NCBI GenBank assembly: GCA_965195225.1
Contig: CBDAFL010000085.1
Location: 82,120-146,119, forward strand
DNA length: 64,000 bases
Direction of reading: 5' to 3'
Source: an uncultured Thermoguttaceae bacterium
GTDB lineage: Bacteria > Planctomycetota > Planctomycetia > Pirellulales > Thermoguttaceae
The number at the start of each line of letters is the position of its first letter. The first letter of the stretch is position 1. The position numbers and the translations under genes were made by a program. This document shows, piece after piece, positions 14 to 9,964 of this stretch. A model generated the notes under the pieces. It was given only the letters and a program-made list of their open reading frames with translations. It ran no database searches and was not told where the DNA came from.

Positions 14-1000
14 ATGACCAAACACACACATCTGACAATCCGCGCCATACTTGCCATGGCGTTTGTCTTCTGCCCCGCCCTGGCCTCGGCCGATTACGTC
101 GCGTCCTGGGGCAGAAACGATACCGGCCAATGCAATAGCCCCGCCGGCAGCGACTACATAGATATAGTGGGCCTGTACGATAGGGGCTTGGCCCTGAAGT
201 CCGACGGCTCGATAGTCAATTGGGGCAGACAGCCTTCAATCACCACGCACGTGGCCGAACCGGCAGGCACGTTCACCGAAATCGACGGCTTCTACGACCA
301 CGTCGTCGCCATCCAGACAAACGGTTCGCTGGCTGATTGGGGATACGACTACTTCGGCCAGTGCTCAGGCACGCCGACCGGCAACAACTTCGTCGACGTC
401 GCGGCAGGCGGCTATTTCAATCTGGCCCTGAAGTCCGACGGTTCCGTCGTTGGCTGGGGCGACAACAGCTACGGCCAATGCACCATCCCCGGACACCTGC
501 CGCCGAACGGCTTTGCCGCGGTCGCGGCGGGCGGAGAATGGGCCCTTGCCTTGATGCTGGACGGTTCGCTCGCAGCGTGGGGCTATGACGGCAAAGGCCA
601 GGTCTCCAACCTGCCCGGCGGCACAAATTTCATGGCGATCTCGGCGGGCTGGGACCACGGCCTGGCGCTAAAGGCCGACGGCTCGGTCGTCGCCTGGGGA
701 GAAAACGCCGACGGACAGGTCTCGCAAACGCCTGCCGGCACTGACTTCGCTGCAATCGTGGCCGGGTGTGATTACAACCTCACACTAAAGACAGACGGTA
801 CGTTGGCCGCATGGGGCCTGAACGCCTATGGCCAGTGCAACGTCCCCGCCGGCAACACATACACAGCCGTCGAGGCTGGCTCCGACCAAGGCATGGCGTT
901 GAATACCGTGCCCGAACCAACAACGCTGACGTTGCTGAGTCTGGCCTGCTTGGCCTTGCTCCGCCGTCGCCGGTACTTTAGTACCACAACGCCAGATTGA
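14..1000 (+). CDS. Secreted RCC1-repeat protein with PEP-CTERM sorting signal
   Basis: N-terminal hydrophobic signal (AILAMAFVFCPALASA). Tandem repeats of about 50 aa carry the recurring WG.N..GQC motif typical of RCC1 blades. The C-terminus has VPEP, then a hydrophobic helix, then RRRR (PEP-CTERM). GGAGAG lies upstream of the ATG. Confidence 0.8.
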   Translation: MTKHTHLTIRAILAMAFVFCPALASADYVASWGRNDTGQCNSPAGSDYIDIVGLYDRGLALKSDGSIVNWGRQPSITTHVAEPAGTFTEIDGFYDHVVAIQTNGSLADWGYDYFGQCSGTPTGNNFVDVAAGGYFNLALKSDGSVVGWGDNSYGQCTIPGHLPPNGFAAVAAGGEWALALMLDGSLAAWGYDGKGQVSNLPGGTNFMAISAGWDHGLALKADGSVVAWGENADGQVSQTPAGTDFAAIVAGCDYNLTLKTDGTLAAWGLNAYGQCNVPAGNTYTAVEAGSDQGMALNTVPEPTTLTLLSLACLALLRRRRYFSTTTPD

Positions 1001-2944: not shown

Positions 2945-3079
2945 GGGTGCATTCCGCACTTTGCAGGGCCGTTCACGGCCCTTGTCTGCCGTAGGCGGAA
3001 ATACCCGTAAACGGGCATGAGAATATTCCATCACTTGTCAAATCGACGGGGCATACATTGCAAAGTGCGGAATGCACCC
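2945..3079. repeat. 21-bp perfect inverted repeat enclosing 93 nt with two nested hairpins
   Basis: Arms GGGTGCATTCCGCACTTTGCA (2945-2965) and TGCAAAGTGCGGAATGCACCC (3059-3079) were read directly. Inner hairpins are GGGCC/GGCCC (2966-2981) and CCCGT/ACGGG (3004-3015). The element starts 4 nt after the uup stop codon. Confidence 0.8.
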
Positions 3080-3441
3080 CTTCGCCCGGCGGCGGGTCGG
3101 CCAGATTATTCCCAACCCCTTGGCACTATTTTCTCATGAAAAATCGCGTTCCGTGACAGCCTGGGCTGCTTGTTGCCCTGTGATGGAAGGGGTAAGATGT
3201 TCGGCGCGGGTGTCAGCCGTGGACACAAAGGTAAAGAGTCAAGGGGGCGGGAGCAATCCTGTTCGGCACGACGATTGCTTGCATTCAACAGTATCCGAGG
3301 GCGGAACCTGGGAAAGGCGTTTCCAGCAATGCCAGTGAACTGTTTCCACCAAGAAGGCGAGACTGGGTAATGTGGAAAAGATGAGCCGCCACTACTTGCG
3401 ATTAGCGGTCGAATACCCGTTGGCTGGAAGGAACTAAACTA

Positions 3442-3609
3442 CTACCGGCTATAAGCCGGTAGGTTTTGAGGGTGTTTCGTGAGCTTCGGACTGAAGTCCT
3501 CAGCCCACGATTTAGAAACATGAAAATCTTCGCCACCATCGCTGGGTTCGTTTTCTTCCTGCTGGCGAATGTACTCCGCAATCACTTCATCCGTCACATT
3601 GCCGCTGGA
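3442..3609 (-). pseudogene. C-terminal remnant of an IS200/IS605-type (Y1) TnpA transposase
   Basis: The minus-strand frame reads SSGNVTDEVIAEYIRQQEENEPSDGGEDF... This resembles the conserved TnpA C-terminus (..STVGG.P..VVKQYIENQ..). An in-frame TAA lies two codons upstream, so only about 55 codons survive. The stop codon sits inside a perfect 21-nt palindrome, CTACCGGCTATAAGCCGGTAG (3442-3462), like the subterminal hairpins of this IS family. Confidence 0.5.
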
Positions 3610-3690
3610 CGGTTAGCATAACATGCAAACGAGGAACCTAAAGGTTTCGCCTGAAGGCGAGGGATTTAGACCCATCGCAAGGACATTAAT

Positions 3691-6033
3691 ATGGCAAAAG
3701 AAATAATCGCAGAAACATATCTGGAACCCCTGCTTACAGATCCTTCAAAGATCCTCAAAGAAGCTGTGCGCCGCCGCAAGCTCTTTAACGAAAAGTCTGT
3801 CGCCGGCGATGCTATTCAAGAGCATGTGGCACAGGGCTGGCAGTTCTATCGCAAATTAAAGCGAGTTACGAAAGTCAGGAAGGAGATAGAAATTGACGAG
3901 CGCCTGGAGAACCGATTCTGGATGCTCCTCTGCAAACTGGGCTACCCCGAAGTCAGTGATGGCCGCAATTTCACGATCCTAATCAAACGAAAAGGTGCCG
4001 AGCCACTACGAAAGCAAGTTGATGTCTTCGGGAAAGATGATGAAACGGTAATAGTTGCGGAGTGCAAAGCATCTCAGAAGCTGACGAAACGAAGCCTTCA
4101 GAAGGACATCGAGGAGTTCGCTAACCTAAAGCGCCCAATTGCAAATGCAATCCGAAAACACTATGGTGCAGAACTGAAACTGAAAATCATTTGGCTCTTC
4201 GTTACAGAGAACATCATCTGGTCCTCGCCCGACAAGCAGAGAGCCTTGGGGGAGAACATACGGGTTATTACAGAGAGAGAGTTGAGGTACTACGCGCAGA
4301 TCGCCGAGCACCTCGGCAAAGCCGCTCGTTACCAGTTCTTGGCAGAGTTTTTGAAAGACCAGAAAATTCCAGAGCTTTCCAACATGATGGTTGCGGCAAT
4401 CAAGGGGCGGCTCGGCGGGAGGCACTTTTTCTGCTTTGTGACAACGCCTCGGCATCTCCTCAAGATTTCATTTGTTAACCATCGGTCGTTGAATGACCCC
4501 GAAGGAGTGCCTACATACCAACGACTCGTCAGTCGTTCGCGGATGCGTGACATAGGCAAATTCATACGGGCAGAAGGATACTTCCCAAATAATCTGATCG
4601 TCAATTTCACTCATAAAGTTCGCTTTGAGAAGATAGCGGGACACGAAAACACGAGTGTTGTGTTTGGGAATCTGTACCTACCGGACAGATATCGGTCTGC
4701 GTGGATAATCGACGGGCAGCACCGCCTCTACGGGTTCTCACGCATTGAGGATAAGTACCTTGATCAGAATATTGTTGTGGTGGCATTTGAAACTCTGCCA
4801 AAGGCCGAAGAAGCCAATTTGTTTGTCACGATCAATCATGAACAAAAGTCTGTTCCCAAACATCTTCTCGATGATCTTGAGGGAGAACTCAAGTGGGGCT
4901 CTTCTGTACCCAGCGAGCGCATCGGGGCGATTGCTGCACGTTTAATTAATTGTCTGAACACCGATGTTGGCGAACCCTTTTACAATCGGATTACCCAGCA
5001 GGGCATACCATCAACGAGCAAGACATGCCTCACAATACCCGCGATCAAAGAAGCACTGCGAAAATCCGGACTGCTTGGCCGCACGCTTCATAACAACACG
5101 ACGTATGACTTAGGCGCTCTCTGTGGACGAAATGACAGTGAGACACTTGATCGCGCCAGGTCAGCGCTGAATCAGTACTTCGGTCAGTTGCGAAATGCAA
5201 ACTTAACGGAATGGGAAAATGGCCGGGACGGCATCCTCTGCACGAATGTTGCGGCTCAGGCATACATCATGTTGCTGGGCGCTCTAGTGAAGTACTGGGA
5301 GGCAAACACCGCTGCAGATGCTCGCGAGATGACTGTGGAAGATACGATGCTGGAGACTGAGGAGTATCTGAAGCCGGTACTCGACTTCCTCGAAAGCAGC
5401 AATGCAGCGCAGCTGAAAACAGCGTTTCAGGTGCCATTTGGTTCTGGAGGGCCGCCCGAGTACTACTACCGGTTATGCAAAATGATAAAGGACAAGTACT
5501 CCGACTTCCGACCAGAAGGAATGGAGGAGTGGGAGGAAGAACAATCAGAAGAACGAGTACAGGACGCCGACACAAAGCTCAAGGCCATCGTATCGGAAAT
5601 CCGAAACTACATTTTTAATGTGTTTCGAGAGACCTACGGAGAGAAGAAGGATGCCTATTGGGATAAGGGGGTTTCCGACAAAACGATGAAAGCGGAGGCC
5701 TACAAACGTTCTCTTGACTATGAAGTTGATGAACGTTTGCCGCTAGAGACGTATCTCGAAGTTGTTGAAATGAAGAAGATCGTCGAGAATAAGCAAAATT
5801 GGCTACGGTTCAAGAAAGTATTCAACATCCCCGAGCCTGGAGAAAAGGGGATGTCGAAGAACCTGAAGTGGATGGATCGAATCAACGAACTGCGCCGAAT
5901 ACCTGCACATCCGGCCAGAGAGCGACGCTACAAACTTGAGGATTTTCAGTACATCGACTTCGTCAATAATGAGTTGATAACCCGACTGAAGGAAGCGCGG
6001 GAACATCCCGAGCGCGAGGATGGCAATGACTGA
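3691..6033 (+). CDS. DGQHR-domain (DndB-like, ParB-fold) protein with N-terminal PD-(D/E)xK-like nuclease motif and C-terminal HEPN-like motif
   Basis: 780-aa ORF with AAGGA 8 nt upstream of the ATG. The core carries YQRLVSRSR, FPNNLIVNF, IIDGQHRLYG (nt 4711-4725) and LFVTINHEQKSV, matching the DndB/DGQHR pattern. The N-terminus has VDVFGKDDETVIVAECKAS (D111...E124-x-K126). The C-terminus has NELRRIPAH (R735-x4-H740). GC is clearly lower than in the flanks. Confidence 0.85.
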   Translation: MAKEIIAETYLEPLLTDPSKILKEAVRRRKLFNEKSVAGDAIQEHVAQGWQFYRKLKRVTKVRKEIEIDERLENRFWMLLCKLGYPEVSDGRNFTILIKRKGAEPLRKQVDVFGKDDETVIVAECKASQKLTKRSLQKDIEEFANLKRPIANAIRKHYGAELKLKIIWLFVTENIIWSSPDKQRALGENIRVITERELRYYAQIAEHLGKAARYQFLAEFLKDQKIPELSNMMVAAIKGRLGGRHFFCFVTTPRHLLKISFVNHRSLNDPEGVPTYQRLVSRSRMRDIGKFIRAEGYFPNNLIVNFTHKVRFEKIAGHENTSVVFGNLYLPDRYRSAWIIDGQHRLYGFSRIEDKYLDQNIVVVAFETLPKAEEANLFVTINHEQKSVPKHLLDDLEGELKWGSSVPSERIGAIAARLINCLNTDVGEPFYNRITQQGIPSTSKTCLTIPAIKEALRKSGLLGRTLHNNTTYDLGALCGRNDSETLDRARSALNQYFGQLRNANLTEWENGRDGILCTNVAAQAYIMLLGALVKYWEANTAADAREMTVEDTMLETEEYLKPVLDFLESSNAAQLKTAFQVPFGSGGPPEYYYRLCKMIKDKYSDFRPEGMEEWEEEQSEERVQDADTKLKAIVSEIRNYIFNVFRETYGEKKDAYWDKGVSDKTMKAEAYKRSLDYEVDERLPLETYLEVVEMKKIVENKQNWLRFKKVFNIPEPGEKGMSKNLKWMDRINELRRIPAHPARERRYKLEDFQYIDFVNNELITRLKEAREHPEREDGND

Positions 6034-6895
6034 GCCATTCCTTAAGTGGCCCGGAGGCAAGAGGTGGCTCGTTCAACGATACGCTACGCTCTTTCCGACA
6101 ACATATCGCCGCTATTTCGAGCCGTTCCTCGGCGGTGGAGCGGTATTTTTTTACCTCTCGCCCCCTCGTACCGTACTATCGGATTCCAATCCTGATCTGA
6201 TTAACGCCTATAAATGTATCCGCGATTATCCAGATATCATCGACAGACGCCTCCGCAGCCTGCATGCGCATCACGATAGCAGGCTCTACTATCGAATGCG
6301 TGCAATGAAGCCGAGAAGCGATATCGGAAGAGCGAGTCGCTTCATCTATCTGAATCGCACGTGCTTTAACGGAATATACAGGGTGAATCGACAAGGCGAG
6401 TTCAATGTGCCTATGGGTTCGAAGGATCTTGTCAAGTATCCTGATGGTTATTTGTCATTGATCTCAGAGCGCCTCGGGAGCGCTTCGATCAAGGTGGGCG
6501 ACTTTGAAGATACAATAGACTCTTCAGGCAAAGGTGACTTTGTGTTTGTTGACCCGCCATATACGGTAATGCACAACAACAACAATTTCATTAAGTACAA
6601 TTCCAAATTGTTCTCTTGGACTGATCAGATTCGATTAGCATCAGCATTGAGGCGTGCCGTTTCTCGGGGTGCCAAAATCATGCTTTCGAACGCGGATCAC
6701 ATTAGCGTTAGAACCCTTTACTGCAAATTTGGCTACCATCACAAGGTTGATCGTTCGAGCGTTCTCGCGGCTGAGTCGGCCAGACGCTTGAGGACATCTG
6801 AACTCTTGATAACGACATACAAGACACCTAGGGAGAAAGTGACAAAAGTCGAAACGGAGACGAAAAGTCGGAAGTCGAAACGAGAACGCAGCTAG
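6020..6895 (+). CDS. Dam-family (D12 class) N6-adenine DNA methyltransferase
   Basis: FLKWPGGKRW, EPFLGGGAVFF (FxGxG SAM motif), SNPDLINAY, YLNRTCFNGIYRVNRQGEFNVP and FVDPPYT (DPPY catalytic motif) are collinear with E. coli Dam. The ATG at 6020 lies 14 nt inside the upstream ORF (stop 6031-6033). Confidence 0.9.
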   Translation: MAMTEPFLKWPGGKRWLVQRYATLFPTTYRRYFEPFLGGGAVFFYLSPPRTVLSDSNPDLINAYKCIRDYPDIIDRRLRSLHAHHDSRLYYRMRAMKPRSDIGRASRFIYLNRTCFNGIYRVNRQGEFNVPMGSKDLVKYPDGYLSLISERLGSASIKVGDFEDTIDSSGKGDFVFVDPPYTVMHNNNNFIKYNSKLFSWTDQIRLASALRRAVSRGAKIMLSNADHISVRTLYCKFGYHHKVDRSSVLAAESARRLRTSELLITTYKTPREKVTKVETETKSRKSKRERS

Positions 6896-6985
6896 TTGTC
6901 GCATCCTCACTTGCCAATACTAGGCTTTGTCGGAAAACCTCGACGGTCATCCCGAGCGAGGCGGAGTATCTCGCCGATTCGGACG

Positions 6986-7044
6986 GGGGGCACTGACGAA
7001 AGGGGCTGAGGTTGGGCGCCACTGGCTTTGCCAGTGCTTTGGGC
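6986..7044 (+). repeat. About 59-bp repeat, copy A1 (contains a GCCACTGG...CCAGTGC hairpin)
   Basis: GGGGGCACTGACGAAAGGGGCTGAGGTTGGGCGCCACTGGCTTTGCCAGTGCTTTGGGC is similar, with about 10 mismatches by eye, to 7949-8008 in the same orientation. Confidence 0.7.
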
Positions 7045-7142
7045 TTGTTTGACGTTCCCACGTGTTTTGGTGGAAGTGGGGGGATGGCGCAGTGAGAGGC
7101 AGTAGGCTGGAGGCTGTAGGACTGGAGACAGTGCCGCGATGG

Positions 7143-7203
7143 GATAGCCCGAAGGGCTTGTGGTAGGACAGCCCGGGGTTGCCGCTTGAGCGGCTACCCC
7201 GGG
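7143..7203 (-). repeat. Composite REP-like element, copy B1 (inverted)
   Basis: Its reverse complement matches the B2/B3 pattern: a CCCGGGGTAGCCGC-TCAA-GCGGCAACCCCGGG palindrome followed by an AGCCCTTCGGGCT hairpin. Confidence 0.7.
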
Positions 7204-7301
7204 TGAACGGGTTTGCCGTAACATCTTACTCCGAAGGGGTTGCGGAATGGCGTCGTCGCTCCGCAACCCTTTCAGGGTTGAACAAATCATTGCCCCCGCA
7301 C

Positions 7302-7358
7302 CCCAGGGTAGCCGCTCAAGCGTCAACCCTGGGCTATCATATCGAAGCCCTTCGGGCT
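7302..7358 (+). repeat. Composite REP-like element, copy B2
   Basis: CCCAGGGTAGCCGCTCAAGCGTCAACCCTGGG followed by CTATCATATCGAAGCCCTTCGGGCT. The second half is identical to B3. The first palindrome is partly degenerate. Confidence 0.75.
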
Positions 7359-7516
7359 AAAGCTGGAGGCTGGAGGGACGTGCAACGGGTTGCCCTCGCT
7401 TGCTACCAGTTGACTGTAGCCAATCCACCCGATAGAATGACGGGTTCGCAGTGGAGCAGCCTGAACATGGTGTTTCGGGTAACGCTGCAGGACACTCTTT
7501 TTGAGGAATTGGACAA

Positions 7517-7714
7517 ATGGCAGAAGGCACGATAAAGCGACTCACGGACAAGGGCTTTGGATTTATCGACACCGGGAGCGAAACGGACATGTTTTTTCAC
7601 TCGTCAAACCTCGAAGGAGTGAGCTACGAAGAACTCCAAGAAGGACAACGAGTGTCATACACCGAAGGACGTGGACCGAAAGGGCCAAGAGCCGAAAACG
7701 TCAAGCCGGTCTGA
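7517..7714 (+). CDS. Cold-shock domain protein (CspA family)
   Basis: 65 aa. GTIKRLTDKGFGFI (RNP-1-like KGFGFI) and DMFFHSS (RNP-2-like) are typical of bacterial cold-shock proteins. Confidence 0.9.
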   Translation: MAEGTIKRLTDKGFGFIDTGSETDMFFHSSNLEGVSYEELQEGQRVSYTEGRGPKGPRAENVKPV

Positions 7715-7832
7715 CGGAGCTGAGAGGAATAGTCGTTTTCAATAAAGATGAACGATACGTTTGGGATTGAATCGGACGCGGCTCAATTCGCAACCCCTGC
7801 GGGGCTAAGATATGGTGGGTGCCGAATTCTTA

Positions 7833-7889
7833 CCCAGGGTAGCCGCTTGAGCGGCTACCCTGGGCTATCATATCGAAGCCCTTCGGGCT
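7833..7889 (+). repeat. Composite REP-like element, copy B3
   Basis: Perfect palindrome CCCAGGGTAGCCGC-TTGA-GCGGCTACCCTGGG followed by CTATCATATCGAAGCCCTTCGGGCT. Confidence 0.8.
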
Positions 7890-7948
7890 AAACGTGACAA
7901 ACGGCACCCCGAAACTTCAATGAGGGCTTCCCCTTCTTTCACACCGAC

Positions 7949-8008
7949 GGGTGGCACTGACAAAAGTGGCTGTGATTAGGTGCCACTGTCTTTGCCAGTG
8001 CTTCGGGC
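7949..8008 (+). repeat. About 59-bp repeat, copy A2
   Basis: GGGTGGCACTGACAAAAGTGGCTGTGATTAGGTGCCACTGTCTTTGCCAGTGCTTCGGGC is a direct-orientation partner of 6986-7044. Confidence 0.7.
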
Positions 8009-8167
8009 TAGTGCTGAACACTCCGTGCCCAATTTCCCCCGTGTGGCGAGATATGCGGGCTAGACTCGGGGTTGTCGCGGGGATTCACTCTATCAGTAGC
8101 CAACGTCATGGACTAGAATTGAAGCTGTGAGCGAAGCACCGGGACATTTCCCACAAGAACCATACGT

Positions 8168-9964
8168 ATGAAACATATTCGGAACTTTTGCATTATCGCC
8201 CATATTGACCATGGCAAGTCGACTCTGGCCGATCGACTGATCCAGGCCTGTGGCGGCGTTGCGCAACGCGATTTTCGCAATCAACTGCTCGACGCGATGG
8301 ATATCGAGCGTGAACGGGGTATTACGATTAAGAGTAATTCGATCACGCTCTCCTACCGTGCCCCGGACGGTCAAGACTATCTGCTGAATCTCATCGACAC
8401 CCCTGGCCATGTCGATTTTTCGCACGAAGTACGGCGTTCACTCATGGCTTGCGAAGGCGCCTTGATTGTTATAGACGCTTCTCAGGGGGTCGAGGCGCAG
8501 ACGGTCGCCAACCTCTATCTGGCCCTGGATAATAATCTGGAGCTTCTGCCGGTGATCAATAAGATCGATCTGTCGGCCGCGGACGTCGAGCGTGTGCGCG
8601 AGGAGATTGATGCGGATTTGGGGCTGGATCCGTTCGAGGCGATACCCGTTTCCGCAAAGACCGGCCTCGGCGTTGAAGACGTGCTCGCGGGAATCGTCGA
8701 GAAGTTGCCTTGTCCAAAGGGCGACCCGGACGCGCCGCTGAAAGCCTTGGTCTTCGACGCTCATTTCGATCAGTATCGAGGGGTGATTCTCCAGTGTCGC
8801 ATCATGGAAGGCACGCTGAAACCACGCGACACAATCCATTTCATGCACATGGGCTGCGATTATACGGTGGAGGAGTTGGGCTTCAATCAGTTGAGGCTCA
8901 ATCCAAAAGAGCAGCTCGGCGCCGGGGAGGTGGGGTATATCGTCGCCGGAATCAAGAGCGTACGGGAGATCGAGATCGGCGATACGATCACTCACCTCGA
9001 TCGCCAAGCGGCGGAACCGGTCCCAGGCTATCAGGAAGCGAAACAGGTCGTCTTTTCCTCGATCTATCCGATGAACACCAATCAGTACAAGGACCTCAGC
9101 AAGGCTCTGGACAAACTGGCAATCAACGATGCGGCGCTCACCTATGAAAAAGATAGTTCGGCGGCCCTTGGTTTCGGATTTCGTTGCGGGTTTCTCGGCC
9201 TTCTTCACCTGGACGTGGTTCAGGAGCGTTTGCAGCGGGAATTCGACATCGGACTGGTCATCTCGGCCCCATCGGTAAAGTACAAGGTGACCTTGAAGGG
9301 CGGCAAGACGATAGATGTAGACAACCCCAGCTACTGGCCCGATCCGATGAAGATCGACTCGGTCACCGAGCCATACATTAAGACCTCTATTCTTACCCCC
9401 GAAGTGTACGTCGGTCCCGTCATGGAGCTATGCCGCGAACATCGCTCGGAGAGTCAGACGATAAATTATCTCTCCGTGGGCCGGGTCGAAGTGATTAGCG
9501 AGATGCCGCTCGGAGAGGTGCTCTTCGATTTCTACGGCAAGCTCAAGACGATCACACGAGGCTACGGATCGTTTGACTATGATCCGATCGAATATCGAGA
9601 CACCGACGTTGTGAAGGTCGATATCCTGGTCAACAAGGAGCCGGTCGATACGCTTTCCTATCTGGTCCATCGCGACAAGGCGCGAAAACGGGCGCTTCAC
9701 TACTGCGAACAACTTGCCGAAGCGATTCCCCGCCACCAGTTCAAGATTCCGGTCCAGGGCGTCATCGGCGGCACGATCATCGCCCGATCGACGATCCAGC
9801 CTTACCGCAAGGACGTAACCGCAAAGTGCTATGGCGGCGACGTTACACGTAAGAACAAGCTCCTCGACAAACAGAAGAAGGGCAAGGCGAAAATGAAGCA
9901 GGTCGGCCAGGTCCAGATACCCCAAAAAGCCTTCGTCTCGGTCCTTTGCGCCGACAGGGATTAG
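8168..9964 (+). CDS. lepA: Elongation factor 4 (LepA)
   Basis: IRNFCIIAHIDHGKSTLADRL, DTPGHVDF and NKIDL GTPase motifs. 598 aa. Characteristic LepA C-terminus (...KCYGGDVTRKNKLLDKQKKGK). Confidence 0.95.
   Translation: MKHIRNFCIIAHIDHGKSTLADRLIQACGGVAQRDFRNQLLDAMDIERERGITIKSNSITLSYRAPDGQDYLLNLIDTPGHVDFSHEVRRSLMACEGALIVIDASQGVEAQTVANLYLALDNNLELLPVINKIDLSAADVERVREEIDADLGLDPFEAIPVSAKTGLGVEDVLAGIVEKLPCPKGDPDAPLKALVFDAHFDQYRGVILQCRIMEGTLKPRDTIHFMHMGCDYTVEELGFNQLRLNPKEQLGAGEVGYIVAGIKSVREIEIGDTITHLDRQAAEPVPGYQEAKQVVFSSIYPMNTNQYKDLSKALDKLAINDAALTYEKDSSAALGFGFRCGFLGLLHLDVVQERLQREFDIGLVISAPSVKYKVTLKGGKTIDVDNPSYWPDPMKIDSVTEPYIKTSILTPEVYVGPVMELCREHRSESQTINYLSVGRVEVISEMPLGEVLFDFYGKLKTITRGYGSFDYDPIEYRDTDVVKVDILVNKEPVDTLSYLVHRDKARKRALHYCEQLAEAIPRHQFKIPVQGVIGGTIIARSTIQPYRKDVTAKCYGGDVTRKNKLLDKQKKGKAKMKQVGQVQIPQKAFVSVLCADRD

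Follow-up and report, generated by a model that had tools for sequence, protein, structure and literature searches.

Introduction

ParB-fold proteins act as switches that bind nucleoside triphosphates (NTPs), and a DndB-like protein was found to bind both ATP and GTP (PMC12704722), while in GmrSD-type enzymes the homologous DUF262 domain serves as NTPase (PMC4619093). It was stated in general terms that ParB domains of the DGQHR/COG1479 kind occur fused to PD-(D/E)xK and HEPN domains (Makarova et al., 2013; PMC3632139). A fusion of a Swt1-like HEPN domain to ParB was listed in the same year for Saro_3948, an entry that is one table line of computational origin, and its authors expected HEPN domains in fusion with restriction subunits to be fallback ribonucleases (RNases) (Anantharaman et al., 2013; PMC3710099). 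Here, we describe two overlapping genes on a stretch of 64,000 nucleotides (the window) from an uncultured Thermoguttaceae bacterium (GenBank assembly GCA_965195225.1, contig CBDAFL010000085.1, positions 82,120 to 146,119). The first gene (3691..6033, forward strand) encodes a three-domain protein of 780 residues, the candidate restriction/effector subunit, and the second encodes a Dam-family N6-adenine DNA methyltransferase. The explanation that we favour, and regard as probable with considerable room for doubt, is that both constitute a compact, horizontally mobile, restriction-modification-like defence cassette, in which the restriction subunit would be a ParB-NTPase-gated nuclease acting on DNA and RNA.

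A first-pass annotation, made from the sequence alone, had read the large protein as a stand-alone sensor-effector with two possible nucleic acid targets and had not recognised its domain combination from described systems. The three-module part of this reading is largely supported. The stand-alone part did not hold, as the overlapping methylase gene had been missed, and the near-universal methylase partner shifts the reading to a restriction-modification-like cassette. The domain combination is not categorically new, given that the ParB-Swt1-HEPN fusion was catalogued, and fusions of ParB domains to PD-(D/E)xK and HEPN domains were mentioned, in 2013; what was not found described in the literature searched is the three-domain protein together with an obligate adenine-methylase partner.

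Pairing with an adenine methylase

The gene of the 780-residue protein starts with an ATG that is preceded, 8 nucleotides 5' of position 3691, by the Shine-Dalgarno-like sequence AAGGA. Its 3' end is overlapped by 8 nucleotides by the methylase gene (6026..6895, forward strand), or by 14 nucleotides if the ATG at 6020 is used. The product of the second gene was assigned to the D12 class of Dam-family N6-adenine methyltransferases by TIGR00571 (3.4e-69), Pfam MethyltransfD12 (1.5e-50) and PADLOC MTase_II (7e-90). Motif I and DPPY are invariant in the methylases, and the E. coli Dam residues K9, N120, R124 and P134 are kept, in contrast to Y138, which is not. From the structure of Dam bound to DNA we take the retained residues to be compatible with recognition of GATC, a site that is unproven.

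The pairing was surveyed in 80 genome loci with 37-82% identity, 76 of which extend far enough to be informative and four of which stop at a contig edge. In 75 of the 76 informative loci the large gene adjoins an N6-adenine methylase, which is Dam-like in 68 cases, a long divergent D12 enzyme in five and of the MT-A70 family in two; one locus is without such a partner. Among 59 intact Dam-like pairs both genes are co-oriented without exception, the methylase following the large gene in 56 and preceding it in three, mostly with overlapping reading frames and with a median gap of -8 nucleotides. The pairwise identities of the large protein and of the methylase are correlated (r = 0.37, Mantel p = 0.001). 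With adjacent nuclease-type and methylase genes that are linked as in an operon and inherited as a unit, the pair has the gene arrangement of a Type II-like restriction-modification system. The large gene is moreover frameshifted in six loci, in five of which the methylase is intact, and this resembles the decay that is usual for such systems.

Domain architecture of the 780-residue protein

All domains and motifs given in this section lie on the forward strand. The N-terminal module (residues ~60-200; 3868..4290) is, as judged from fold, catalytic residues, family similarity and conservation, a predicted PD-(D/E)xK nuclease. A full-length AlphaFold2 (AF2) model built from a shallow alignment was mediocre (pLDDT 68, pTM 0.46) and usable for its N-terminal hits alone. 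It contains an alpha-beta-beta-beta-alpha-beta core (helix 68-82, strands 94-100, 103-115 and 119-126, helix 136-158, strand 165-172) with a local pLDDT of 51-85. The catalytic candidates are E73, D111, E124 and K126; in the model E73 lies in helix 1, strand 2 carries D111 at its end and strand 3 contains E124-x-K126, and the motif from D111 to K126 is encoded by nucleotides 4021-4068. Foldseek returned as top matches the nuclease domains of VC1899, Cdn1, Card1 and Can2 (PDB entries 1xmx, which is VC1899, 9u49, 6xl1 and 7bdv; E 1e-3 to 7e-3, probability 1.0), with Nt.BspD6I and EndoMS next in rank. Pfam and PADLOC models were scanned against 64 diverse homologues, of which 25 matched Hjc, 20 matched Card1_endonuc (best 8e-6) and a few matched NERD, Mrr_cat or HSDR_N_2, and the PADLOC model CARF_PDDEXK was found in 28 (best 7e-9). 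In the window sequence itself no curated model exceeded its threshold for the N-terminal module.

The central module (residues 232-541; 4384..5313) comprises a DGQHR/ParB-like domain of the DndB-DpdB type and a helical extension. By score and by motifs the protein is assigned to the DGQHR domain family TIGR03187/PF14072, with 160.9 bits against a cut-off of 58.85 (5e-47) for TIGR03187 and 50.6 bits against 29.1 (2e-13) for Pfam DndB PF14072; the PADLOC DpdB model matched at 9e-26. The DGQHR motif is encoded by nucleotides 4711-4725. Two described families were tried and rejected for this module. The phosphorothioation-associated DGQHR model TIGR04172, a hypoth_equivalog that stands for DndB proper, gave 87.8 bits against a cut-off of 450 and no linkage to dndCDE was seen, and NF041060, which stands for DpdB of the 7-deazaguanine Dpd system, gave 87.1 bits against 300 and no linkage to dpdA or dpdC was seen. 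No dnd or dpd genes were found near the gene in the window or in the related loci examined.

The C-terminal helical module (residues ~625-770; 5563..6000) is a probable, not a proven, Swt1-like HEPN domain, to which matches of homologues to HEPN_Swt1 and a motif point. A model of residues 540-780 built from a deeper alignment is all-alpha (pLDDT 92.3, pTM 0.85). HEPN_Swt1 (PF18731) is the sole Pfam family that recurs in this region; 29 of the 64 homologues matched it at E<=1, with 1.2e-7 as the best value, and 13 did so at E<=1e-3 in a scan of 60, and the matches span nearly all 115 model positions and map to residues ~630-760. All per-member scores that were inspected lie under the gathering score of 27.5 bits. 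PF18731 is precomputed for the homologues P0265 and P0389, and the PADLOC candidate PDC-M34B, a stand-alone protein of ~190 residues, matches the same C-terminal region. The R735-x4-H740 motif (nucleotides 5893-5910) fits the conserved R-x4-6-H signature of the HEPN superfamily, and the family consensus N-x-[IL]-R-[NKR]-x3-H has the classical HEPN form. A second R-x4-H (R240-H245) lies within the ParB region and was judged irrelevant.

The motifs that had been read from the translation in the first-pass annotation were recovered. D111-x12-E124-x-K126 is present with its residues correctly placed, and only the span 111-126 was off by one, for the leading V, as VDVFGKDDETVIVAECK covers residues 110-126. 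DGQHR was rightly put at residues 341-345, RINELRRIPAHPARER corresponds to residues 730-745 and contains R735-x4-H740, and WLRFKKVF corresponds to residues 704-711. The proposed restriction-endonuclease-like fold agrees with the topology, the Foldseek matches to Card1, Can2 and VC1899 and the Pfam and PADLOC matches of homologues, and the proposed ParB fold agrees with the three family models. For the suggested Swt1-like HEPN domain the outcome was mixed, in that homologues reach the Pfam model, whereas the window protein does not and its model found no significant fold match.

Spread and conservation of the family

In a database search more than 2,500 homologue clusters were found at 90% identity, and the best 120 are all of ~785 residues and 67-86% identical. 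From a second search came 2,294 representatives of clusters formed at 50% identity (E<=1e-3), of which 518 reach E<=1e-30. Full length (700-830 residues) was found for 119 of the 150 best representatives, at 27-52% identity, and with so many full-length homologues the three-module architecture is old and stable and no one-off fusion. The source databases label the members just 'DGQHR domain-containing protein' or 'DNA sulfur modification protein DndB', the latter being misleading, and PADLOC sees the central domain alone, as DpdB. Hosts in the survey were Planctomycetota, Acidobacteriota, Verrucomicrobiota, Desulfobacterota, Ignavibacteria, Gemmatimonadota, Coriobacteriia, Alpha-, Beta- and Gammaproteobacteria and one nanoarchaeal metagenome-assembled genome (MAG); a second profile search added the Bacillota isolate Brevibacillus halotolerans and a MAG of Hodarchaeales (Asgard). 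The phage genomes searched contained short DGQHR-domain matches only and no full-length homologue, a sequence search of PDB chains with the single protein and with the family profile found no related solved structure, and a homologue search with the N-terminal region only returned mostly gene fragments on short contigs.

Conservation was determined in 120 full-length homologues at 27-52% identity. In the nuclease domain E73 is conserved in 85%, D111 in 96%, D116 in 92%, E124 in 88%, C125 in 96% and K126 in 74% of them (a further 8% carry R). Y276, Q277, R278, DGQHR, F378 and N382, i.e., the QR, DGQHR and FxxxN motifs, are conserved in 100%. In the C-terminal module W727 is conserved in 97%, R735 in 82% and H740 in 68%, with another 19% in which H740 is shifted by insertions or deletions, and R-x4-H is kept in 95 of the 120 diverse representatives, with position 736 mostly N, giving the typical RN-x3-H. 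W727, R735 and H740 are invariant in a second conservation set of 95 homologues. D111/E124/K126 and R735/H740, the residues on which the proposed nuclease and HEPN motifs depended, are thus mostly conserved at this distance, which argues that the motifs are more than chance occurrences.

Proposed mode of action and alternative explanations

In the cassette that we favour, the Dam-family methylase would mark the host DNA with N6-methyladenine, and the 780-residue protein would work as the restriction/effector subunit, presumably as a homodimer. Its DGQHR ParB-like module would bind DNA and nucleoside triphosphate and act as an NTP-dependent switch or clamp that licenses the nucleases. Activation would be blocked by methylation of the recognition site, so that the PD-(D/E)xK domain would cleave unmethylated, foreign DNA. 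The Swt1-like HEPN domain would be a second effector, probably an RNase, acting together with the deoxyribonuclease (DNase) or as a fallback suicide arm once restriction fails, and the latter role matches the prediction made in 2013 (PMC3710099).

How the two predicted nuclease heads relate can be seen from motif losses. Both motifs are kept in 66 of the 120 diverse members, only the DNase motif is altered in 29, only the HEPN motif is lost in 23 and both are lost in two. Loss of both motifs in one lineage is therefore rare (odds ratio 0.2; Fisher p = 0.022, without correction for phylogeny), which counts in favour of two effectors. Among the 29 DNase-altered members 14 carry an E-C-T variant, which may still be active.

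Several observations weigh against the favoured explanation. About ten genome loci carry clear substitutions of E73, D111, E124 or K126, yet keep Rx4H and the adjacent methylase, as exemplified by the isolate genome of Gordonibacter sp. 28C (L052), whose copy has V73, K124 and V126, which is a misfit with a simple model in which methylation protects from the DNase. Taken with the motif-loss pattern, these loci suggest that one nuclease head of either kind is enough and that some lineages may cleave RNA as their output. The predicted N-terminal domain is, in structure and profile, nearest to the non-specific Card1/Can2 effectors and not to a sequence-reading Type II enzyme, which leaves the reading of a methylated site unexplained. 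The window protein gave no match to the HEPN_Swt1 model at E<=1 while its homologues match, so that its HEPN membership rests on transitive homology; Foldseek of the confident C-terminal model against the PDB returned as top match the HEPN RNase Csm6, which is insignificant (E = 1.5, TM 0.22), and nothing was returned from BFVD. GATC shows no depletion in the window, with an observed/expected ratio of 0.95, though this value is uninformative on site protection, and none of the other 4-mer palindromes shows a relevant depletion there. Distant homologues (~30% identity) on the plasmid pNL1 and on an Agrobacterium plasmid are without methylase. Lastly, the literature searched yielded neither biochemical nor genetic tests of a family member.

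The DNase-substituted loci that retain Rx4H and the methylase speak for a methylation-guarded abortive-infection sensor, in which the methylase would supply a self-mark or signal rather than shield DNA from cutting, an alternative that we consider rather unlikely. Methylated sites would be read by REase-like (restriction endonuclease-like) and ParB modules that are accessory or no longer catalytic, or nucleotides with N6-methyladenine (m6A) would be bound in the ParB pocket, and indiscriminate cleavage of RNA, DNA or both would kill or arrest the infected cell. All methylase partners, from three families, are N6-adenine enzymes, the nuclease domain has its nearest likeness in the non-specific Card1/Can2 effectors, and a methylome-derived m6-dAMP danger signal was reported for another system (bioRxiv 10.64898/2026.01.15.699771). 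However, the DNase triad is intact in most members and the HEPN motif is lost in 23 of the 120, which rules out RNase output as the general mechanism; the frameshifted large genes, mostly beside intact methylases, fit the classical decay of restriction genes, and the ligand proposed for the ParB pocket is conjectural. In a broader form, which seems to us just as doubtful, a ParB-like switch and a REase-like reader, catalytically dead in some lineages, would monitor adenine methylation or m6A-derived nucleotides and trigger interchangeable DNase and HEPN RNase heads. If this were true, some lineages would pair a self/non-self mark like that of restriction-modification systems with an abortive-infection output at the RNA level.

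Considerably less probable still is a role as accessory protein or regulator on the modification side, in which the large protein would regulate or assist the adjacent methylase and its nuclease-like domains would merely bind DNA. DndB and DpdB, whose models are nearest to the central domain, are of this kind, DndB being a regulator that represses dnd (PMC4507180) and DpdB an ATPase of the modification pathway that helps DpdA to insert preQ0 (PMC12839542). The scores of the window protein are, however, far under both cut-offs (given above), dnd and dpd genes were not found nearby, both nuclease-type domains mostly retain their catalytic residues in homologues of 27-52% identity, and the methylase families are swapped while the large protein stays constant. 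To our knowledge, moreover, Dam-family methylases require no ATPase helper. We hold it to be highly improbable that an orphan Dam methylase and an unrelated Type IV-like, i.e., modification-dependent, nuclease of the GmrSD/SspE kind have been juxtaposed by chance: ParB-like DUF262/DGQHR domains do occur in the Type IV enzymes GmrSD, BrxU and SspE (PMC4619093; PMC12839542), but the genes adjoin each other in 75 of the 76 informative loci, their reading frames overlap and their divergence is correlated, an HNH/DUF1524 domain was not found and GmrSD_N gave a weak match in just three of 64 members, and a nuclease that depends on modification would, if it shared an operon with a methylase, turn against the host that encodes it.

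Genomic context and mobility

The two genes are the only ones in an island of low GC content (3400..6900; ~47-53% compared to 60% in the window). Its upstream neighbour is an ABC-F ATPase gene (1025-2941) and its downstream neighbour is lepA (8168-9964); a DEAD-box helicase and PFOR (pyruvate:ferredoxin oxidoreductase) are further neighbours. Copies with 82% identity to the window protein occur in MAGs of Planctomycetota and Acidobacteriota. The cassette is widespread and horizontally mobile, as follows from the low-GC island amid housekeeping genes, the 82%-identical copies in other phyla and the broad spread over phyla, archaeal MAGs included. The flanks of the island showed no similarity to those of the 80 related loci, and no tRNA genes or direct repeats bounding it were found.

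The homologues on pNL1 (L006, 7371-11511) and on the Agrobacterium plasmid (L007, 7368-11591) lie beside a DGQHR/DndB-like protein of 335 residues, a radical-SAM protein of 537 residues and a GHKL-type ATPase of 507 residues, and L007 has, upstream, genes for a PIN_8 protein and another GHKL ATPase. This conserved trio may be an uncharacterised DNA-modification module. As these plasmid members stand beside other partners, the large protein may be a portable effector able to combine with various modification modules. Near the cassette itself a second DndB-like DGQHR gene (361-458 residues) is found in several loci (L001, 5562-7541; L004, 11824-13501; L015, 9795-10946; L034, 9754-10893), which is followed in L001 and L004 by an unannotated gene of ~190 residues. 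The ~190-residue genes were examined as split HEPN domains, and hhalign found no relation. The second DGQHR gene and its partner may constitute a further DGQHR system of two genes that clusters near the cassette.

Upstream of the large gene, an 88-residue open reading frame (ORF; 3072-3338) was considered as a controller (C) protein and rejected, having no family match and no conservation. A small ORF of 33 codons (3520-3615), located 75 nucleotides upstream of the large gene, encodes the hydrophobic peptide MKIFATIAGFVFFLLANVLRNHFIRHIAAGRLA; it is not conserved in related loci and is probably due to chance. Where the GC content begins to fall on the upstream side, just 3' of the ABC-F gene, there is a perfect 21-nucleotide inverted repeat (2945-2965 and 3059-3079; GGGTGCATTCCGCACTTTGCA / TGCAAAGTGCGGAATGCACCC) with 93 nucleotides between its arms, which could be a terminator-like hairpin, a miniature inverted-repeat transposable element (MITE) or an insertion-site feature. 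Families of repeats are located between the methylase gene and lepA (6982-8012), namely a 67-nucleotide direct repeat (6982-7048 and 7946-8012, 85%), a 60-nucleotide repeat (7302-7361 and 7833-7892, 93%) and a GC-rich palindrome of 32 nucleotides, CCCGGGGTTGCCGCTTGAGCGGCTACCCCGGG, in three copies (7172, 7302 and 7833). They look like REP (repetitive extragenic palindromic) or MITE elements. The ORFs 6907-7326 (reverse strand) and 7179-7535 (forward strand) gave no family matches. At the beginning of the window (14-1000) an RCC1-repeat beta-propeller protein is encoded with a C-terminal PEP-CTERM sorting signal, which suggests that the host is Gram-negative and has an exosortase system.

Comparison with known systems

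If the favoured model is true, the family would constitute a common, unrecognised restriction-modification-like system whose restriction subunit has a DNase and a probable RNase coupled to an NTP switch of the ParB type. It would connect three topics of current work, namely NTPases of the ParB fold that act outside chromosome segregation, fallback effectors of the HEPN RNase type and the reading of methylation marks. The lineages that miss one or the other nuclease head form a natural series that makes the idea of two interchangeable effectors directly testable.

The protein shares with the Saro_3948 type the arrangement of ParB and a C-terminal Swt1-like HEPN domain. An N-terminal restriction endonuclease domain and a Dam partner are not named for Saro_3948 in the available part of the text (PMC3710099). 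The plasmid pNL1 of Novosphingobium aromaticivorans encodes a full-length homologue of 769 residues (30% identity, 97% coverage) with matches to DndB and HEPN_Swt1; that this gene, SARO_RS17535, and Saro_3948 are the same was not confirmed. DndB and DpdB resemble the window protein in the DGQHR ParB-like domain with helical extension and shared motifs, but they comprise only ~350-380 residues, in contrast to the 780 residues of the window protein with its added nuclease and HEPN-like domains and its adenine-methylase partner.

GmrSD, BrxU and SspE are similar in design, as a ParB-like NTPase module is fused to a nuclease effector in a modification-aware defence protein. They carry a C-terminal DUF1524 HNH domain, whereas the window protein has an N-terminal PD-(D/E)xK domain and a HEPN-like domain, and they depend on modification, whereas the window protein, being encoded with a methylase, is presumably blocked by it. 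Membership in this group was examined and rejected, as HNH/DUF1524 was not found, GmrSD_N was weak in three of 64 members and BrxU ranked 28 in Foldseek (E = 0.73). The type III CRISPR effectors of the CARF-PD-(D/E)xK kind (Card1, Can2, Cdn1 and VC1899), which are allosterically activated and largely non-specific, are the closest structural and profile matches to the N-terminal domain. In contrast to them, the window protein is without a CARF domain or a cyclic-oligoadenylate context and has the ParB-like module as its putative regulator.

Type II systems of the Dam family (DpnII/MboI type) likewise consist of an adjacent, co-oriented D12 N6-adenine methylase and PD-(D/E)xK nuclease, and there, too, the nuclease gene decays and the methylase survives. 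However, the nuclease subunit of the window is ~3x larger, contains a ParB-like NTPase and a HEPN-like domain and is unrelated to the DpnII family, and a Type II enzyme would not typically depend on NTP or target RNA, as is predicted here.

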